Below are positions 15,083-21,423 of a stretch of 30,585 nucleotides of DNA, piece after piece. A program made the position numbers and the translations under genes. How positions within the stretch are numbered: position 1 is the first letter of the stretch; each line of letters starts with the position of its first letter. The stretch is from the IMG/VR virus record IMGVR_UViG_2728369593_000008, positions 1 through 30,585 of that record; one strand, 5' to 3'. The notes beneath the pieces were generated by a model. That model was not told the origin of the DNA. It ran no database searches and was given only the letters and a program-made list of their open reading frames with translations. This stretch comes from a virus (Duplodnaviria > Heunggongvirae > Uroviricota > Caudoviricetes).

Positions 15083-15253
15083 ATGTTTGTGAAACCTGTT
15101 AAAGGGCGGTCAGTGCCTGACCCTGCCCGCGGTGACCTTTTGCCCACCGAAGGGCGAAATGTTGACGAGAACAACTACTGGCTGCGCCGTGAAGCAGCGG
15201 GTGATATCCGGCGCGTGAATAAAAAGGTGAACACCGATGACGATAAGCTTTAA
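15083..15253 (+). CDS. Small conserved protein preceding the tail sheath (Mu gp38-like); absent from the supplied ORF track (<60 aa)
   Basis: 56 codons read manually (MFVKPVKGRSVPDPARGDLLPTEGRNVDENNYWLRREAAGDIRRVNKKVNTDDDKL); overlaps the sheath start by 17 nt. Confidence 0.45.
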   Translation: MFVKPVKGRSVPDPARGDLLPTEGRNVDENNYWLRREAAGDIRRVNKKVNTDDDKL

Positions 15254-16733
15254 CACCATTCCGTCGAATACGCTGGTTCCGCTGTTTTATGCGGAAATGG
15301 ATAACCAGGCGGCGAATACTGCACAGGACAGCGGAGCATCGCTGCTGATTGGTCATGCCAATAACGGTGCAGAGATTGTTGCCAACAGTCTGGTGCTGAT
15401 GCCATCGGCAGACTATGCACGCCAGATTTGTGGTGCGGGAAGTCAGCTGGCGCGTATGGTCGAGGCTTATCGCCAGACCGACCCGTTTGGTGAACTGTAT
15501 GTGATTGCCGTTCCGGAAGCCACAGGCGCGGCGGCAACAGTTACGCTGACGGTGACCGGCGAAGCAACCGAAACCGGCACGGTGAATGTCTATGTGGGAC
15601 GTACCCGCGTGCAGGCACCGGTGACCAACGGCGATAACGTCACGACGATTGCCAGCAGTATCAAAGATGCCATCAATGCCGTTCCGACCCTGCCGTTTAC
15701 AGCCTCATCTTCGGCTGGCGTGGTCACACTGACCGCGCGTCATAAGGGGCTTTGCGGGAATGAAATTCCTGTCAGCCTCAATTACTACGGCTTCGGTGGG
15801 GGCGAAGTACTGCCAGCGGGCGTACAGATTGCCGTGGCGACGGGGACCGCCGGAACGGGCGCTCCGGTTCTCACCGGCGCGGTGGCTGCAATGGCGGATG
15901 AGCCGTTTGATTATATCGGCCTGCCGTTCAACGACACGGCCTCCGTTAACACGCTGGTGACAGAGATGAACGATACCAGCGGTCGCTGGAGCTATGCGCG
16001 TCAGCTGTATGGTCATGTGTATACGGCAAAGACCGGCACACTGTCAGAACTGGTGAACGCAGGTGACCAGTTTAACCAGCAGCACATCACCCTGGCGGGA
16101 TACGAAAAAGAGACCCAGACGCCTGCCGACGAGCTGGCGGCAAGCCGTACCGCCCGCGCAGCGGTGTTTATCCGCAACGATCCGGCACGTCCCACGCAGA
16201 CCGGTGAGCTGGTGGGTATGTTGCCTGCGCCGAAGGGGAAACGGTTCACGATGACCGAGCAGCAGACCCTGCTGTCTCATGGCGTGGCAACGGCGTATGT
16301 CGAAAGCGGGGTGCTGCGCATTCAGCGTGATGTCACCACGTACAGGAAAAACGCTTACGGGGTTGCGGATAACAGCTACCTCGACAGCGAGACGCTGCAT
16401 ACCAGTGCGTATGTACTGCGCAAACTGAAATCCGTCATTACCAGTAAGTACGGGCGTCACAAGCTTGCCAGCGACGGTACCCGCTTTGGTCCCGGTCAGG
16501 CGATTGTCACCCCGGCGGTAATCAAAGGGGAACTGCTGGCAACCTACCGTCAGCTTGAGCGTGCGGGGATCGTGGAAAACTACGAACTGTTTAAGCAGTA
16601 CCTGGTTGTGGAGCGTGATGCCAGCGATCCGAACCGCCTGAACACGCTGTTCCCGCCTGACTATGTTAACCAGTTGCGTGTTTTTGCCGTGGTTAACCAG
16701 TTCCGTCTTCAGTATTCAGAGGAGTCTGCATAA
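15237..16733 (+). CDS. Contractile tail sheath protein (Mu gpL-like)
   Basis: 498 aa; sheath-typical size and sequence character; AAGGTGA RBS; followed directly by the tube gene. Confidence 0.85.
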   Translation: MTISFNTIPSNTLVPLFYAEMDNQAANTAQDSGASLLIGHANNGAEIVANSLVLMPSADYARQICGAGSQLARMVEAYRQTDPFGELYVIAVPEATGAAATVTLTVTGEATETGTVNVYVGRTRVQAPVTNGDNVTTIASSIKDAINAVPTLPFTASSSAGVVTLTARHKGLCGNEIPVSLNYYGFGGGEVLPAGVQIAVATGTAGTGAPVLTGAVAAMADEPFDYIGLPFNDTASVNTLVTEMNDTSGRWSYARQLYGHVYTAKTGTLSELVNAGDQFNQQHITLAGYEKETQTPADELAASRTARAAVFIRNDPARPTQTGELVGMLPAPKGKRFTMTEQQTLLSHGVATAYVESGVLRIQRDVTTYRKNAYGVADNSYLDSETLHTSAYVLRKLKSVITSKYGRHKLASDGTRFGPGQAIVTPAVIKGELLATYRQLERAGIVENYELFKQYLVVERDASDPNRLNTLFPPDYVNQLRVFAVVNQFRLQYSEESA

Positions 16734-17089
16734 TGGCCCGTATCGGGGGAACCTGTTATTTCAAAATTGACGGTCAGCAGCTATCGCTGACCGGCGGCAT
16801 TGAGGTGCCCATGAACAGGACGGTCAATGATGACATCATCGGCCTGGACGGTTCAGTGGACCGCAAGGAAACTCACCGTGCGCCTTATGTCAAAGGGACC
16901 TTCAAGGTGCCGAAGAATTTTCCGGTGAGCAAAATCACCTCGTCTGATGAGATGACCATCACTGCCGAGCTGGCGAACGGTCAGGTCTATGTATTGTCGT
17001 CCGCCTGGCTGCACGGAGAAGCGAACCATAATGCCGAAGAAGGCACGGTTGATCTTGAGTTCCACGGTGAAGAAGGGGATTACCAGTAA
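16733..17089 (+). CDS. Tail tube protein (Mu gpM-like)
   Basis: 118 aa; TAATG overlap with the sheath stop; GAGGAG RBS. Confidence 0.8.
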   Translation: MARIGGTCYFKIDGQQLSLTGGIEVPMNRTVNDDIIGLDGSVDRKETHRAPYVKGTFKVPKNFPVSKITSSDEMTITAELANGQVYVLSSAWLHGEANHNAEEGTVDLEFHGEEGDYQ

Positions 17090-17358
17090 TGAAAGAGCTT
17101 GAGTTAAAGAAACCGATTATCGCTCATGGTGAGACACTCTCCGTACTGGAGTTTGATGAACCCACCGGGAAGGATGTCCGCGAGCTGGGGTATCCCTACC
17201 AGATGAATCAGGATGAGTCCGTCAGACTTCTGGCGCATGTGGTGTCGAAATACATTGTGCGGCTGGCGAAAGTGCCGCAAAGCTCTGTCGACCAGATGTC
17301 TCCGGCAGACCTGAATGCAGCGGCGTGGCTTGTGGCTGGTTTTTTCCTCCAGGCCTGA
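17089..17358 (+). CDS. Tail assembly chaperone (short, in-frame product)
   Basis: 89 aa; directly upstream of the tape measure gene; ends 10 nt after a T_TTT_TTC slippery heptamer. Confidence 0.75.
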   Translation: MKELELKKPIIAHGETLSVLEFDEPTGKDVRELGYPYQMNQDESVRLLAHVVSKYIVRLAKVPQSSVDQMSPADLNAAAWLVAGFFLQA

Positions 17359-17507
17359 CGGCTGAATACCTCACTGATCGCTTCTTTGACTGCGCCAGCT
17401 ACTGGCGCATTAATCCCTTCGAATTGCTGAATATGCCGATCAGTGAAATTCCCTTGCTGGTCAGTCAGGCAAACAGGATAGAGCAGGAGAAACGCACACA
17501 TGGCTGA
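17089..17507 (+). CDS. Tail assembly chaperone, predicted -1 frameshift fusion product (lambda G/GT analogue)
   Basis: Slippery heptamer T TTT TTC at 17340-17346; the -1 frame is open from there to 17507 and ends 8 nt into the tape measure gene. Confidence 0.6.
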
Positions 17508-19281
17508 ATTTGAGCTTAAGGCGTTGATCACCGGTGTCGACAGGCTTTCTCCCGCGCTGTCGAAAATGCAAAAGAAAATCCGGGGATTTAAACGCCAGGC
17601 GGAAGAGGCGTCACAGGGTGGGCTGGCGCTTGGTGGCGGACTGGCAGCGGGGCTGACGCTTTCCCTGAAATCTTATGCCGATCAGGAAAACGCCGCTACC
17701 GGGCTGAAAGTCGCCATGATGGATGCGAACGGCGAGGTTGGAAAGAGCTTTCAGGACATCAATAAACTGGCTATTGGCCTGGGTAACCAGCTACCCGGTA
17801 CAACGGCTGATTTCCAGAACATGATGCAGATGCTGGTGCGTCAGGGGATCCCGGCAGAAAACATTCTGGGTGGTGTGGGTAAAGCGACAGCTTATCTTGC
17901 GGTACAACTGAAAAAAACACCGGAAGCGGCTGCCGAGTTTGCCGCAAAGATGCAGGATGCTACCGGAACGGCCTCAGAAGACATGATGGGGCTGTTCGAC
18001 ACAATTCAGAAGGCGTTTTATCTGGGCGTTGACGACACCAACATGCTGTCATTCTTCACTAAAACCAGCTCTGTTCTGAAGATGGTGAATAAGGACGGTC
18101 TTCAGGCTGCACAGAGTCTTGCCCCCATCAGTGTCATGATGGATCAGATGGGGATGAACGGGGAGTCGGCAGGTAATGCCCTGCGAAAAGTTATCCAGTC
18201 CGGATTAAGCGTTAAGAAAATCAGGGACGTCAATAAAATCATGGCCCGCCAGAAACTCGGGGTACAGCTCGATTTTACTGATGGCAAAGGGAGTTTTGGC
18301 GGTCTTGATAACATGTTCAGGCAACTGGCAAAGCTGCGAAAACTGACCGACGTTAAGCGAACCGGTGTACTTAAGGCAATATTTGGTGATGATGCCGAAA
18401 CCCTTCAGGTGGTCAATGCTCTGATCGATAAAGGAAAGGATGGTTACGATCAGATCCAGCAGAAGATGCATAAACAGGCCAGCCTGAATAAACGTGTTCA
18501 GGCACAGCTTGGTACGCTGTCCAACCTGTGGGAGGCAATGACGGGGACCGCAACTAACGGTCTTGCAGCTATTGGCGGCGCATTTTCTGGTGACGCTAAA
18601 AATATCACGCAATGGCTGGGGGAGTTGGGGGAAAAATTCACGAAGTTTGCGGATGAAAATCCCCGGGTTATTCGCGGCGTCGTCGGGCTTGCTGCCGGTC
18701 TTGCGATTCTGAAACTGGGATTGATGGGCGTGGGCAGTGCCATCAGCATTGTCAGCAGGATCATGTCGATGACGCCGATTGGCATGATTGCGACGGCGAT
18801 AGCCCTGGCTGCGGGATTAATTATCACTAACTGGGATGTTGTCGGACCTTATTTCAAGAAGCTCTGGGAAACCATTGGTCCTTATTTTGAGGCTGGCTGG
18901 GAACTCCTTAAGAAAGTTTTTGCCTGGTCGCCGCTGGGGATGGTGATCAATAACTGGGGGCCGGTTGTTAAGTGGTTTCAGGATATGTGGGACAAGCTGA
19001 AGCCAATTATTGAATGGTTTACTGATGGTGCCAGCGACACGGTGGTTGCAGCCAATGCGACTCAGTGGGGGGGCGGTGGCTATGGGGCGTACGGTACAGG
19101 CGTTTCTGCTCAGGGATACAATCCGTATCAGATAGTTCAGGCTGCGCCGAAGAAGGCTGAAGGCGAGATTACGGTCTCGTTTAAGGATGCGCCTCCCGGG
19201 ATGCGGGTGACCGATACCCGCTCCAGTGGTATCGACGTGAATCACGACGTTGGTTACACCCGGTTTGGTATGGGGGGCTAA
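17500..19281 (+). CDS. Tail tape measure protein
   Basis: 593 aa; Ala/Gly-rich helical N-terminal half, hydrophobic segment, Trp-rich C-terminus; position after the chaperone pair. Confidence 0.85.
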   Translation: MAEFELKALITGVDRLSPALSKMQKKIRGFKRQAEEASQGGLALGGGLAAGLTLSLKSYADQENAATGLKVAMMDANGEVGKSFQDINKLAIGLGNQLPGTTADFQNMMQMLVRQGIPAENILGGVGKATAYLAVQLKKTPEAAAEFAAKMQDATGTASEDMMGLFDTIQKAFYLGVDDTNMLSFFTKTSSVLKMVNKDGLQAAQSLAPISVMMDQMGMNGESAGNALRKVIQSGLSVKKIRDVNKIMARQKLGVQLDFTDGKGSFGGLDNMFRQLAKLRKLTDVKRTGVLKAIFGDDAETLQVVNALIDKGKDGYDQIQQKMHKQASLNKRVQAQLGTLSNLWEAMTGTATNGLAAIGGAFSGDAKNITQWLGELGEKFTKFADENPRVIRGVVGLAAGLAILKLGLMGVGSAISIVSRIMSMTPIGMIATAIALAAGLIITNWDVVGPYFKKLWETIGPYFEAGWELLKKVFAWSPLGMVINNWGPVVKWFQDMWDKLKPIIEWFTDGASDTVVAANATQWGGGGYGAYGTGVSAQGYNPYQIVQAAPKKAEGEITVSFKDAPPGMRVTDTRSSGIDVNHDVGYTRFGMGG

Positions 19282-19362
19282 TAGCCAGCTTAAGTACGGG
19301 TTTTGTCGTTTTGCTGATTCTTGGTAGGATTAGTCCGATTATTTAATGATGGGAATAGGGAT

Positions 19363-20040
19363 ATGAAAATTCTAACAGTTTATTCAGTTGTCGGCATGGC
19401 TCTTTTACTCGGGGGATGTACATCTCCAAAGTATAATTATTTACCAAAAACAGAAAGTTATAGTGAGCCTCCTGTAGGAAGCATTAATACAGCTTATGTC
19501 GGTGATTCGATGATTAAGCAGGGTGAGTCACAGAAGTTCGAAGGTTTGAAGGTTAATGCTCCCGCGAGAGTTTCCTGGGCTTATACGATTACTCCGGGGA
19601 TGCTGAAAAAGGTTGGTGAGGATAACAAGGCAGATTATTACTTTCTCACAAACGGTGCTGATTCAGCCAATGTGGAAAAGGCAGCTCTTGCCGATATGTG
19701 GCAGGGCATCATGGTAGAAAAGAAAAATAATGCCTTATGTGTAATAACAGTTTTTGGCGCTACCACCTGTGAAACCAACATGCCGATCGAAAAGGTTAAT
19801 CTGAACATCAGTGGTGACTCATCTTTCCAGCAAGCTCTGCTTTACAACGGAAGGGTCGGAAACAAAATCAACATTGGATATCGTGAATTTTCAGCGAATA
19901 CAGCGCGCCCGGCCTTCAACAACGATGTTGAGTATGATCTCGCGGAGTCTAAAACAATTGGCTATAAAGGCGCTAAATTCGAAGTACTTGATGCGAGTAA
20001 CCAAAGCATAAGGTATCGAGTAATAAGTAACTTTAGATAA
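19363..20040 (+). CDS. Putative lipoprotein, AT-rich moron inside the tail module (function unknown)
   Basis: Signal peptide MKILTVYSVVGMALLLGGC with lipobox LLGGC; AGGGA RBS (the ORF track begins at 19321); own downstream terminator; AT-rich relative to neighbours. Confidence 0.65.
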   Translation: MKILTVYSVVGMALLLGGCTSPKYNYLPKTESYSEPPVGSINTAYVGDSMIKQGESQKFEGLKVNAPARVSWAYTITPGMLKKVGEDNKADYYFLTNGADSANVEKAALADMWQGIMVEKKNNALCVITVFGATTCETNMPIEKVNLNISGDSSFQQALLYNGRVGNKINIGYREFSANTARPAFNNDVEYDLAESKTIGYKGAKFEVLDASNQSIRYRVISNFR

Positions 20041-20093: not shown

Positions 20094-21104
20094 ATGACGT
20101 GGAAAGACAGGCTTCAGGACGCGTCATTTCGCGGCGTACCGTTTAAGGTTGAAGAAGAAAGTGCGGGAACCGGTCGCCGTGTGGAAACACATGAATACCC
20201 GAACCGCGACAAGCCCTATACCGAAGATCTGGGAAAAGTCACTTTCCGCCCGTCCATCACAGCTTATGTGGTAGGAGATGACTGCTTTGACCAGCGCGAT
20301 CGCCTGATTGAAGCGCTGAATAAACCCGGTCCCGGCACGCTTGTCCACCCGACATATGGTGAGCTGAAAGTCTGTGTTGACGGAGAGGTTCGGGTCAGCA
20401 CATCGAAAAGTGAAGGGCGTATTGTCCGCTTTGACCTGAAGTTTGTCGAAGCAGGAGAACTCTCTTACCCCACATCAGGTGCGGCGACGGCGCAGACGCT
20501 GATGTCATCCTGTTCTGCACTGGATGACTGCATTAGTGACAGCTTCAGCGGTTTCAGTATCGATGGTGTGGCGGATTTCGTGCAGAACGACGTTATCGGT
20601 AATGCCAGCATAATGCTGGGGTATGTTTCTGATGCGATGAAAGTGGTGGATTCTGCCGTATCGGATGCCGCCAGGCTGTTGCAGGGGGATATCTCGGTAC
20701 TTCTGCCGCCGCCATCGTCAGGCAAAAATTTCGTTGAGCAGGTGCAGAAAATGTGGCGTACCGGGAAACGCCTTTATGGTAACGCTAGCGACCTGGTTAC
20801 CATGATCAAAACGCTTTCCGGTGTCAGCCTCGGCAGCGATCTGCAACCGCGCGGCGTCTGGAAAACGGACAGTAAAACCACCGCCACGGCGACGCAGCAG
20901 CGTAACGTGGTTGCCAGCACCCTTCGTACGACCGCAATCAGCGAAGTGGCGTATGCCGTCACCCCGATTGCCTGCGCCAACAACTTCCGCGGTGATGCAG
21001 AATGCCGCAGTGGGGCAGGCAACAACAGCTGCACAGAGCACCGGCTGGCCTTCCGTCACGCATCCGGCACTGAACAATGCACCGGCGGTGAAAAACACGG
21101 TTGA
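20094..21104 (+). CDS. DNA circularisation protein (Mu gpN-like), N-terminal reading frame
   Basis: GGAG RBS; N-terminus resembles the DNA-circulation N-terminal domain; the frame closes at 21104 while the apparent C-terminal part continues in another frame. Confidence 0.6.
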   Translation: MTWKDRLQDASFRGVPFKVEEESAGTGRRVETHEYPNRDKPYTEDLGKVTFRPSITAYVVGDDCFDQRDRLIEALNKPGPGTLVHPTYGELKVCVDGEVRVSTSKSEGRIVRFDLKFVEAGELSYPTSGAATAQTLMSSCSALDDCISDSFSGFSIDGVADFVQNDVIGNASIMLGYVSDAMKVVDSAVSDAARLLQGDISVLLPPPSSGKNFVEQVQKMWRTGKRLYGNASDLVTMIKTLSGVSLGSDLQPRGVWKTDSKTTATATQQRNVVASTLRTTAISEVAYAVTPIACANNFRGDAECRSGAGNNSCTEHRLAFRHASGTEQCTGGEKHG

Positions 21105-21423
21105 CCTGCCGACGTGGGAAGAACTGACTGACATTCGCGACACACTGAATACGGCAATTGATAAGGAGTTGTCCCGTACAACCAGTGATGCGCTGTTTCT
21201 GGCGCTGCGCCGGGTGAAAGCAGATCTGAATGCGGATATCAACACGCGCCTTGAACAGTCTGCACGGATCATTCAGCGCACACCGGATGAGGTTTTACCC
21301 GCGCTGGTGCTGGCGGCGACCTGGTTTGATAACGCGGCGCGTGACGCGGACATTATCCGGCGTAATGCCATTACGCATCCCGGCTTTGTGCCGGTGATCC
21401 CTCTGAAGGTGCCAGTGCAATGA
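21034..21423 (+). pseudogene. C-terminal part of the gpN-like gene in a shifted frame (frameshifted gene or assembly error)
   Basis: ORF 20821..21423 in frame 1 reads as natural protein from about 20990 onward and ends with an ATGA overlap onto the next baseplate gene; combined span 20094..21423 (~443 codons) approaches gpN size. Confidence 0.4.

Follow-up and report, generated by a model that had tools for sequence, protein, structure and literature searches.

A probable programmed -1 ribosomal frameshift in the tail assembly chaperone gene of an SfV/SfII-like Escherichia coli prophage

In the DNA analysed here (the window: all 30,585 nucleotides of IMG/VR virus record IMGVR_UViG_2728369593_000008), 141 nt without an annotated gene separate the stop codon of a small tail assembly chaperone gene from the ATG of the tape measure gene. 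The locus raises the question of what this stretch is: a non-coding spacer, a small gene with its own start, or the second part of the chaperone gene, entered by a change of reading frame shortly before the chaperone stop. Judged on sequence comparisons, the last of these is very probably correct, in the form of a programmed -1 ribosomal frameshift of the type used by tail assembly chaperones (lambda G/GT, P2 E/E+E').

Tail module, slip site and reading frames

The window corresponded to an SfV/SfII-like E. coli prophage with a contractile tail module of the Mu type, in which the genes followed the order sheath, tube, PF10109 chaperone and tape measure (Table 1). Prophages of the SfV/SfII/SfI group in E. 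coli and Shigella matched the region at 99-100% identity; the chaperone region matched 1,085 of 5,426 complete E. coli genomes, and was also present in the Shigella serotype-converting phages SfV, SfII, SfI and SfIV, in ST64B and in phiP27. The stop codon of the tube gene overlapped the chaperone ATG. The chaperone product scored 56.7 bits against PF10109 (cut-off 25; E=2.4e-15; residues 4-86 on model positions 2-78/79), the family of P2 gpE, named "Phage tail assembly chaperone proteins, E, or 41 or 14" in Pfam; it also matched phrog_166 (tail protein), and all nine aligned relatives gave a PF10109 match. The chaperone pair was located between the tube and tape measure genes, which is the position characteristic of the G/GT type.

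Table 1. Features of the tail module and of the proposed slip site (positions in the window).
Feature	Position	Strand	Basis
Tail sheath gene	15237-16733		PF04984, PF17482, PF17481
Tail tube gene, 118 aa	16733..17089	+	PF10618 Tail_tube, E=2.4e-33
Chaperone 0-frame product ("G", P2 gpE equivalent), 89 aa	17089..17358	+	PF10109 Phage_TAC_7
Slippery heptamer T_TTT_TTC (P-site TTT 17341-17343, A-site TTC 17344-17346)	17340..17346	+	Sequence, phase, conservation
Predicted -1 extension ("T", P2 E' equivalent), 53 codons (PPGLTAEY...EKRTHG) + TGA	17346..17507	+	Translation, codon periodicity, homology
GC-rich hairpin UGCGCCAG-CUA-CUGGCGCA, perfect over 8 bp, within the extension and 44 nt past the heptamer	17391..17409	+	RNA fold
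Putative Shine-Dalgarno AGGAG for the tape measure gene, inside the -1 extension, 10 nt before ATG 17500	17485..17489	+	Read from sequence; inferred
Tape measure gene, 593 aa	17500..19281	+	PF10145 PhageMin_Tail, E=1.2e-26

The first-pass annotation had placed a T_TTT_TTC heptamer in the chaperone ORF, 10 nt ahead of the stop of this 89-aa frame, and had described the -1 frame as open from there to 17507, across the tape measure start; all three claims were borne out by direct reading. The 0-frame codons, counted from the ATG at 17089, were GGT (17338-17340), TTT, TTC, CTC, CAG, GCC and TGA (17356-17358), with the heptamer in the X_XXY_YYZ phase. Three codons (9 nt) lay between the heptamer and the 0-frame stop, which began 10 nt past the last heptamer base. 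The -1 frame was open from 17217 to the TGA at 17505-17507; it overlapped the chaperone ORF by 142 nt, and its stop overlapped the tape measure ATG by 8 nt (ATGGCTGA). The +1 frame was closed 7 nt past the 0-frame stop. A -1 slip at the heptamer would yield a predicted fusion of 86 + 53 = 139 aa, join(17089..17346,17346..17507). The predicted tryptic peptides of the extension include FFDCASYWR and INPFELLNMPISEIPLLVSQANR, the predicted junction peptide is VPQSSVDQMSPADLNAAAWLVAGFFPPGLTAEYLTDR, and the short form is predicted to end in ...LVAGFFLQA.

According to the proposed mechanism, most ribosomes would make the 89-aa chaperone and terminate at the TGA at 17356. In a minority, the tRNA-Phe on TTT (P site) and TTC (A site) would re-pair one base back on T_TTT_TTC; these ribosomes would go on to read 53 more codons in the -1 frame, up to the stop that overlaps the tape measure start, and would release the 139-aa fusion, having its first 86 residues in common with the short form. 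By analogy with lambda and P2, the shared N-terminal part would coat the tape measure protein and the extension would recruit the tube protein; the ratio of long to short form would be fixed and low, set by the efficiency of the slip, as tail assembly needs, and neither form would end up in the virion. We infer the ribosomal nature of the slippage, its efficiency and the functions of both proteins.

Conservation of the slip site and coding in the -1 frame

Heptamers of the form XXXYYYN occurred 142 times in the 30.6 kb of the window, giving an expectation of about 0.2 in-phase heptamers per 142-nt overlap; T6 runs were scarcer (about 18 on the + strand). A single in-phase heptamer is not rare by chance, and the case therefore rests on the relatives. 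These were collected from a phage collection (blastn and tblastn), from one scan of species-representative bacterial genomes (5-sequence alignment) and from P2 itself, and amounted to 26 distinct sequences; the closest were near-identical and the most remote had about 30% protein identity. They came from Escherichia/Shigella, Edwardsiella, Pantoea, Citrobacter, Kluyvera, Salmonella, Arsenophonus, Symbiopectobacterium, Sodalis, Burkholderia, Pseudomonas/Stutzerimonas and Bordetella, together with an alphaproteobacterial MAG and P2.

An in-phase slippery heptamer was present at the homologous codon in every one of the 26 sequences: TTTTTTC in 13, TTTTTTT in nine, TTTTTTG in three and GGGTTTT in one. 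This is far beyond chance, since the same in-phase heptamer recurs at the same codon in 26 distinct sequences. The residue ahead of Phe-Phe/Leu varied (G, R, S, V, N, P or D), and the third base of its codon completed the heptamer in all cases; the middle codon was TTT throughout, never TTC. From the start of the heptamer to the 0-frame stop the distance ranged from 16 to 70 nt among relatives, so the close stop seen in the window does not belong to any conserved signal. Family-wide, the change of frame was bounded on one side by the latest -1-frame stop upstream and on the other by the earliest stop of the 0 frame, which left a 25-nt interval from -9 to +16 nt of the heptamer start. In most relatives, the end of the -1 ORF overlapped the tape measure start in an ATGnnTGA/TAA arrangement.

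The -1 extension is also under protein-coding selection. In a gap-free alignment of 12 SfV-clade sequences, the columns variable at first, second and third codon positions numbered 29/80, 18/80 and 71/80 in the 0 frame upstream of the heptamer, and 26/47, 14/47 and 39/47 in the -1 frame past the 0-frame stop; at the slip site, the frame in which third positions were the variable ones changed from 0 to -1. The three synonymous sites in GGT TTT TTC were invariant in these 12 sequences; upstream, 89% of third positions varied. The motif A-x-[YF]-[WF]-[RK]-[ILV]-[ND]-P-x-E was kept in the extension in all clades, and the extension matched phrog_32181 at E=4e-40. Divergent phages gave two-piece tblastn matches with 35-45% identity, and protein identity in distant phages was 30-45%. 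No NCBIfam model matched the fusion or the extension, and a PDB sequence search with the family profile returned no relative with a solved structure.

Several other copies departed from this pattern. Paraburkholderia phage IPK (L009:1189-1760, an UNVERIFIED record) encoded a chaperone homologue with the conserved -1 extension and no heptamer: its Phe-Phe codons were TTC TTC, and its -1 frame opened about 10 nt before the 0-frame stop (...GAG GGC GCG TAA), which implies that either the slip takes place elsewhere or the record is faulty; this relative counts against the proposed signal. Chaperone copies from Pantoea bathycoeliae and Arsenophonus endosymbiont contigs (L032, L034 and L035) were degraded: close to the T-run or upstream of it, their frames were fused or broken, consistent with prophage decay in insect endosymbionts. 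An insertion of 1 nt directly at the slip site (GGTTTTTTT or GGGTTTTTT; T7 or GGG+T6) was seen in three public assemblies, of which two were E. coli genomes and the third a metagenome contig (L039, L040 and L041, each at 844-880). In these, the exact 139-aa fusion was a single-frame gene annotated as an ordinary protein (KDU40741.1, STK26617.1); because the insertion joins the frames, these copies would yield the long form only, unless the insertions are homopolymer sequencing errors.

Two further observations were made downstream of the tape measure gene in the window. A 239-aa ORF with a lipoprotein-like N-terminus (...LLLGGC...) occupied positions 19321-20040, between the tape measure and DNA circulation genes, which are just 45 nt apart in SfV. 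Its GC content was 41-45% vs. about 53% in the flanks, neither Pfam nor a megablast search of the phage collection gave a match, and the ORF has the look of a moron (cargo) gene. In the DNA circulation gene (20094-21423; a homologue of Mu N and SfV orf15, 447 aa), a C-run at about 20962-20965 had one C too many (CACCCCG in the window vs. CACCCG in SfV), which divided the gene between two frames; the gene is either a pseudogene in a decaying prophage or the product of a sequencing error. Given this 1-nt insertion the prophage may be decaying, and the frameshift signal in this copy may therefore no longer be in use.

Stimulatory elements and rival explanations

The first-pass annotation had proposed a search for a stem-loop 5-9 nt past the heptamer, and here the outcome was negative: in folds of 17347-17430 and 17300-17520, the only structure 5 nt downstream was a mini-stem of 3-4 bp, which was not conserved. 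When the 50 nt after the heptamer were folded in 14 family members, z-scores ranged from -1.2 to +1.3, no better than shuffles, and RNAalifold on 10 SfV-clade sequences found only a 3-bp mini-stem nearby. No Shine-Dalgarno-like stimulator was present in the 20 nt before the heptamer in any clade, and an Rfam scan of 17200-17620 returned only a sub-threshold chance match. The absence of a stem-loop was not counted against a frameshift, since the P2 site is also reported to lack a downstream hairpin (PMC3091744).

The perfect hairpin inside the extension (Table 1) was invariant in the 12 SfV-clade sequences, where it formed the longest invariant block of the gene. It occurred once in the window and was missing from the SfIV/ST64B clade, and its excess of synonymous conservation was not significant (scan permutation p=0.30). 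As a functional element it was left unsupported by its distance from the heptamer, the lack of an SfIV/ST64B copy and this p value; it is probably a by-product of the peptide motif CASYWR, which is conserved. A helix that may enclose it (17371-17377/17440-17446) showed a few compensatory changes.

The motif U_UU.U_UU.Y is among the efficient -1 motifs in E. coli (PMC4066793), and frameshifting on UUUUUUC in reporters was 0.12% for the bare heptamer, rising to 0.89% when the IS911 stimulator was present and to 7.6% when the IS3 pseudoknot was (PMC4066793, Table S3). The low value for the bare heptamer weighs against the proposed frameshift. The same value for U_UUU_UUC (about 0.1% in E. coli reporters), taken together with the lack of a conserved hairpin, pseudoknot or Shine-Dalgarno-like element, is the ground for a reading in which the slip in the SfV clade would depend on a kind of stimulator unrecognised for tail chaperone frameshifts. 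Candidates would be the hairpin at 17391-17409, perhaps within the helix 17371-17377/17440-17446, or the nascent peptide; another possibility under the same reading is substantial transcriptional slippage on the T6-T8 run. Taken as a whole, this reading seems to us unlikely.

A conserved chaperone frameshift of the G/GT type, as originally suggested for this locus, was supported by where the gene lies, by the conserved heptamer, by selection on the -1 frame as coding sequence and by the similarity of the extension to its homologue P2 E'. The same 139-aa fusion would also arise if RNA polymerase added one U at the T6 run in some mRNAs. The conserved element was indeed a homopolymer (T6-T8) in 25 of the 26 sequences, with T7 or T8 in some relatives, and E. 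coli genes avoid UUUUUUU whatever its phase, a bias partly ascribed to transcriptional slippage (PMC4066793). However, productive transcriptional slippage in bacteria is described for runs of about nine A or T (PMC5009743), and the run in the window has six; the homologous event in P2 is described in the literature as a translational frameshift (PMC3091744, PMC3931495; RefSeq). The G_GGT_TTT of the alphaproteobacterial relative (L030), with only four T's, is a good tandem-slip heptamer and a poor slip site for polymerase, and retains the logic of tandem slippage, which argues for the ribosome over RNA polymerase. Transcriptional slippage is decidedly unlikely as the source of the fusion.

The -1 ORF might instead be a separate small gene of 60 aa, initiated independently at GTG 17325 and running to 17507. 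Such an ORF does open at this GTG, it is annotated in SfII and vB_EcoM-689R6, several GenBank records call it a hypothetical protein, and a PHROG family (phrog_32181) exists for it; however, no Shine-Dalgarno precedes the GTG, and in 19 of the 26 relatives the open -1 stretch upstream of the heptamer contained no ATG, GTG or TTG, which excludes a conserved independent start. In several relatives the -1 frame opened as late as 9-24 nt ahead of the heptamer, and the homologous P2 E', which overlaps gene T, is reported to have no ribosome binding site and to be made only as E+E' (PMC3931495). A gene with its own initiation is accordingly a very improbable account of the extension. The last alternative supposes that nothing happens at this site, the heptamer being a by-product of Gly-Phe-Phe and the 141-nt stretch a non-coding spacer. 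RefSeq/PGAP and most GenBank records do leave the stretch unannotated, and one in-phase heptamer in an overlap of this length is no statistical rarity, as seen above; but a mere spacer would not be expected to show -1 codon periodicity, 30-45% protein identity in distant phages and profile homology to P2 E', nor a base before TTT TTY that is T (or completes GGG) whatever the residue encoded, next to a middle codon that is never TTC. We consider this alternative extremely unlikely.

Annotation and comparison with known systems

Neither the 139-aa fusion nor the shift was annotated in any of the 13 GenBank/RefSeq records of the chaperone family inspected, which either leave a 141-nt "intergenic" gap or call a 60-aa hypothetical protein; the P2 record annotates its own fusion. 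Sharma et al. (2014), who surveyed heptamers across E. coli, listed five prophage clusters, and the present one is not among them. The 60-aa ORF at 17325-17507 (phrog_32181, "unknown function") is most likely the frameshift extension of the chaperone and not a gene of its own, and recognising the shift would give this orphan family a function, as the T/E' domain of the tail assembly chaperone. Both the phenomenon and the signal in this chaperone family are already well known and constitute an ordinary phage feature; the main value of the result is for annotation, and current understanding is unchallenged.

In lambda, gpG and gpGT are produced by a -1 frameshift at G_GGA_AAG (Levin et al. 1993; Xu, Hendrix & Duda 2004, 2013, 2014, as summarised in PMC5009743). 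There the shared part binds the tape measure protein, the extension recruits the tube protein and neither product is found in the virion, and weak frameshifting without strong stimulators is usual for G/GT (PMC5009743). Lambda and the window have in common a chaperone encoded between a major tail gene and the gene for the tape measure, a short product of the 0 frame accompanied by a rarer -1 fusion (predicted, in the window) with the same N-terminus, the lack of a strong RNA stimulator, and a presumed role in providing a fixed ratio of two assembly chaperones. They differ in that there is no detectable sequence similarity between them, the heptamers are different, and the lambda tail is non-contractile whereas that of the window is contractile; the function has been demonstrated experimentally in lambda, and for the window it would follow by analogy.

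P2 is reported to shift -1 at TTTTTTG to give E (91 aa) and E+E' (142 aa) (PMC3091744; RefSeq annotation), a frameshift in the FETUD tail operon for which Christie et al. (2002) is cited in PMC3091744 and PMC3931495. Nine fusion proteins, combined into a profile, aligned with P2 E+E' over both halves (hhalign: probability 94%, E=9.5e-8, 123 columns), placing GFF|PPG of the window on GFL|VAE of P2, with the slip site in the same column. The PF10109 model (position 78/79) ended at residue 86 in the window and at residue 85 in P2, in each case the last residue before the shift. The alignment of both halves and the end of PF10109 at the slip site indicate that the window carries a homologue of the P2 signal at the homologous site. 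The two also shared PF10109 as the family of the 0-frame part, a T6N heptamer after GGT at the homologous column, products of nearly equal size (89/139 aa in the window), an 8-nt overlap of the extension stop with the tape measure start (in P2, from the start of T at 851 to the end of E+E' at 858, on locus L037) and the lack of a downstream hairpin. As for differences, the heptamer ends in C in the window and in G in P2, and the 0-frame stop follows after 9 nt vs. 18 nt. The window extension was below the threshold of PF06528 (Phage_P2_GpE), with no match at E<=0.01 alone or at E<=1 within the 139-aa fusion; one relative gave a weak match (E=0.064), and the link of the window extension to PF06528 is by profile comparison only. 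The tail genes around the chaperone were Mu-like (tube PF10618, homologue of DNA circulation protein N), not P2-like.

Mu and the window share the layout of the tail module (in Mu: L sheath, M tube, chaperone, gp42 tape measure, N), with the chaperone in the same position. The Mu chaperone gp41, however, is reported to be extended by a -2 frameshift (Xu et al. 2004, as cited in PMC2628397 and PMC5009743), whereas the extension in the window lies in the -1 frame and the +1/-2 frame is closed after 7 nt. Mu gp41 (144 aa) matched PF23746 (Gp41_Mu) at E=9e-35 and resembled PF10109 weakly (24.7 bits); the Pfam scan of the window chaperone gave no match to PF23746, PF10109 being its sole domain. The lack of PF23746 and the extension in the -1 frame point to a Mu-type module with a P2-type chaperone signal in the window, and suggest that a tail module of the Mu type can carry a -1 T-run signal of the P2 type.
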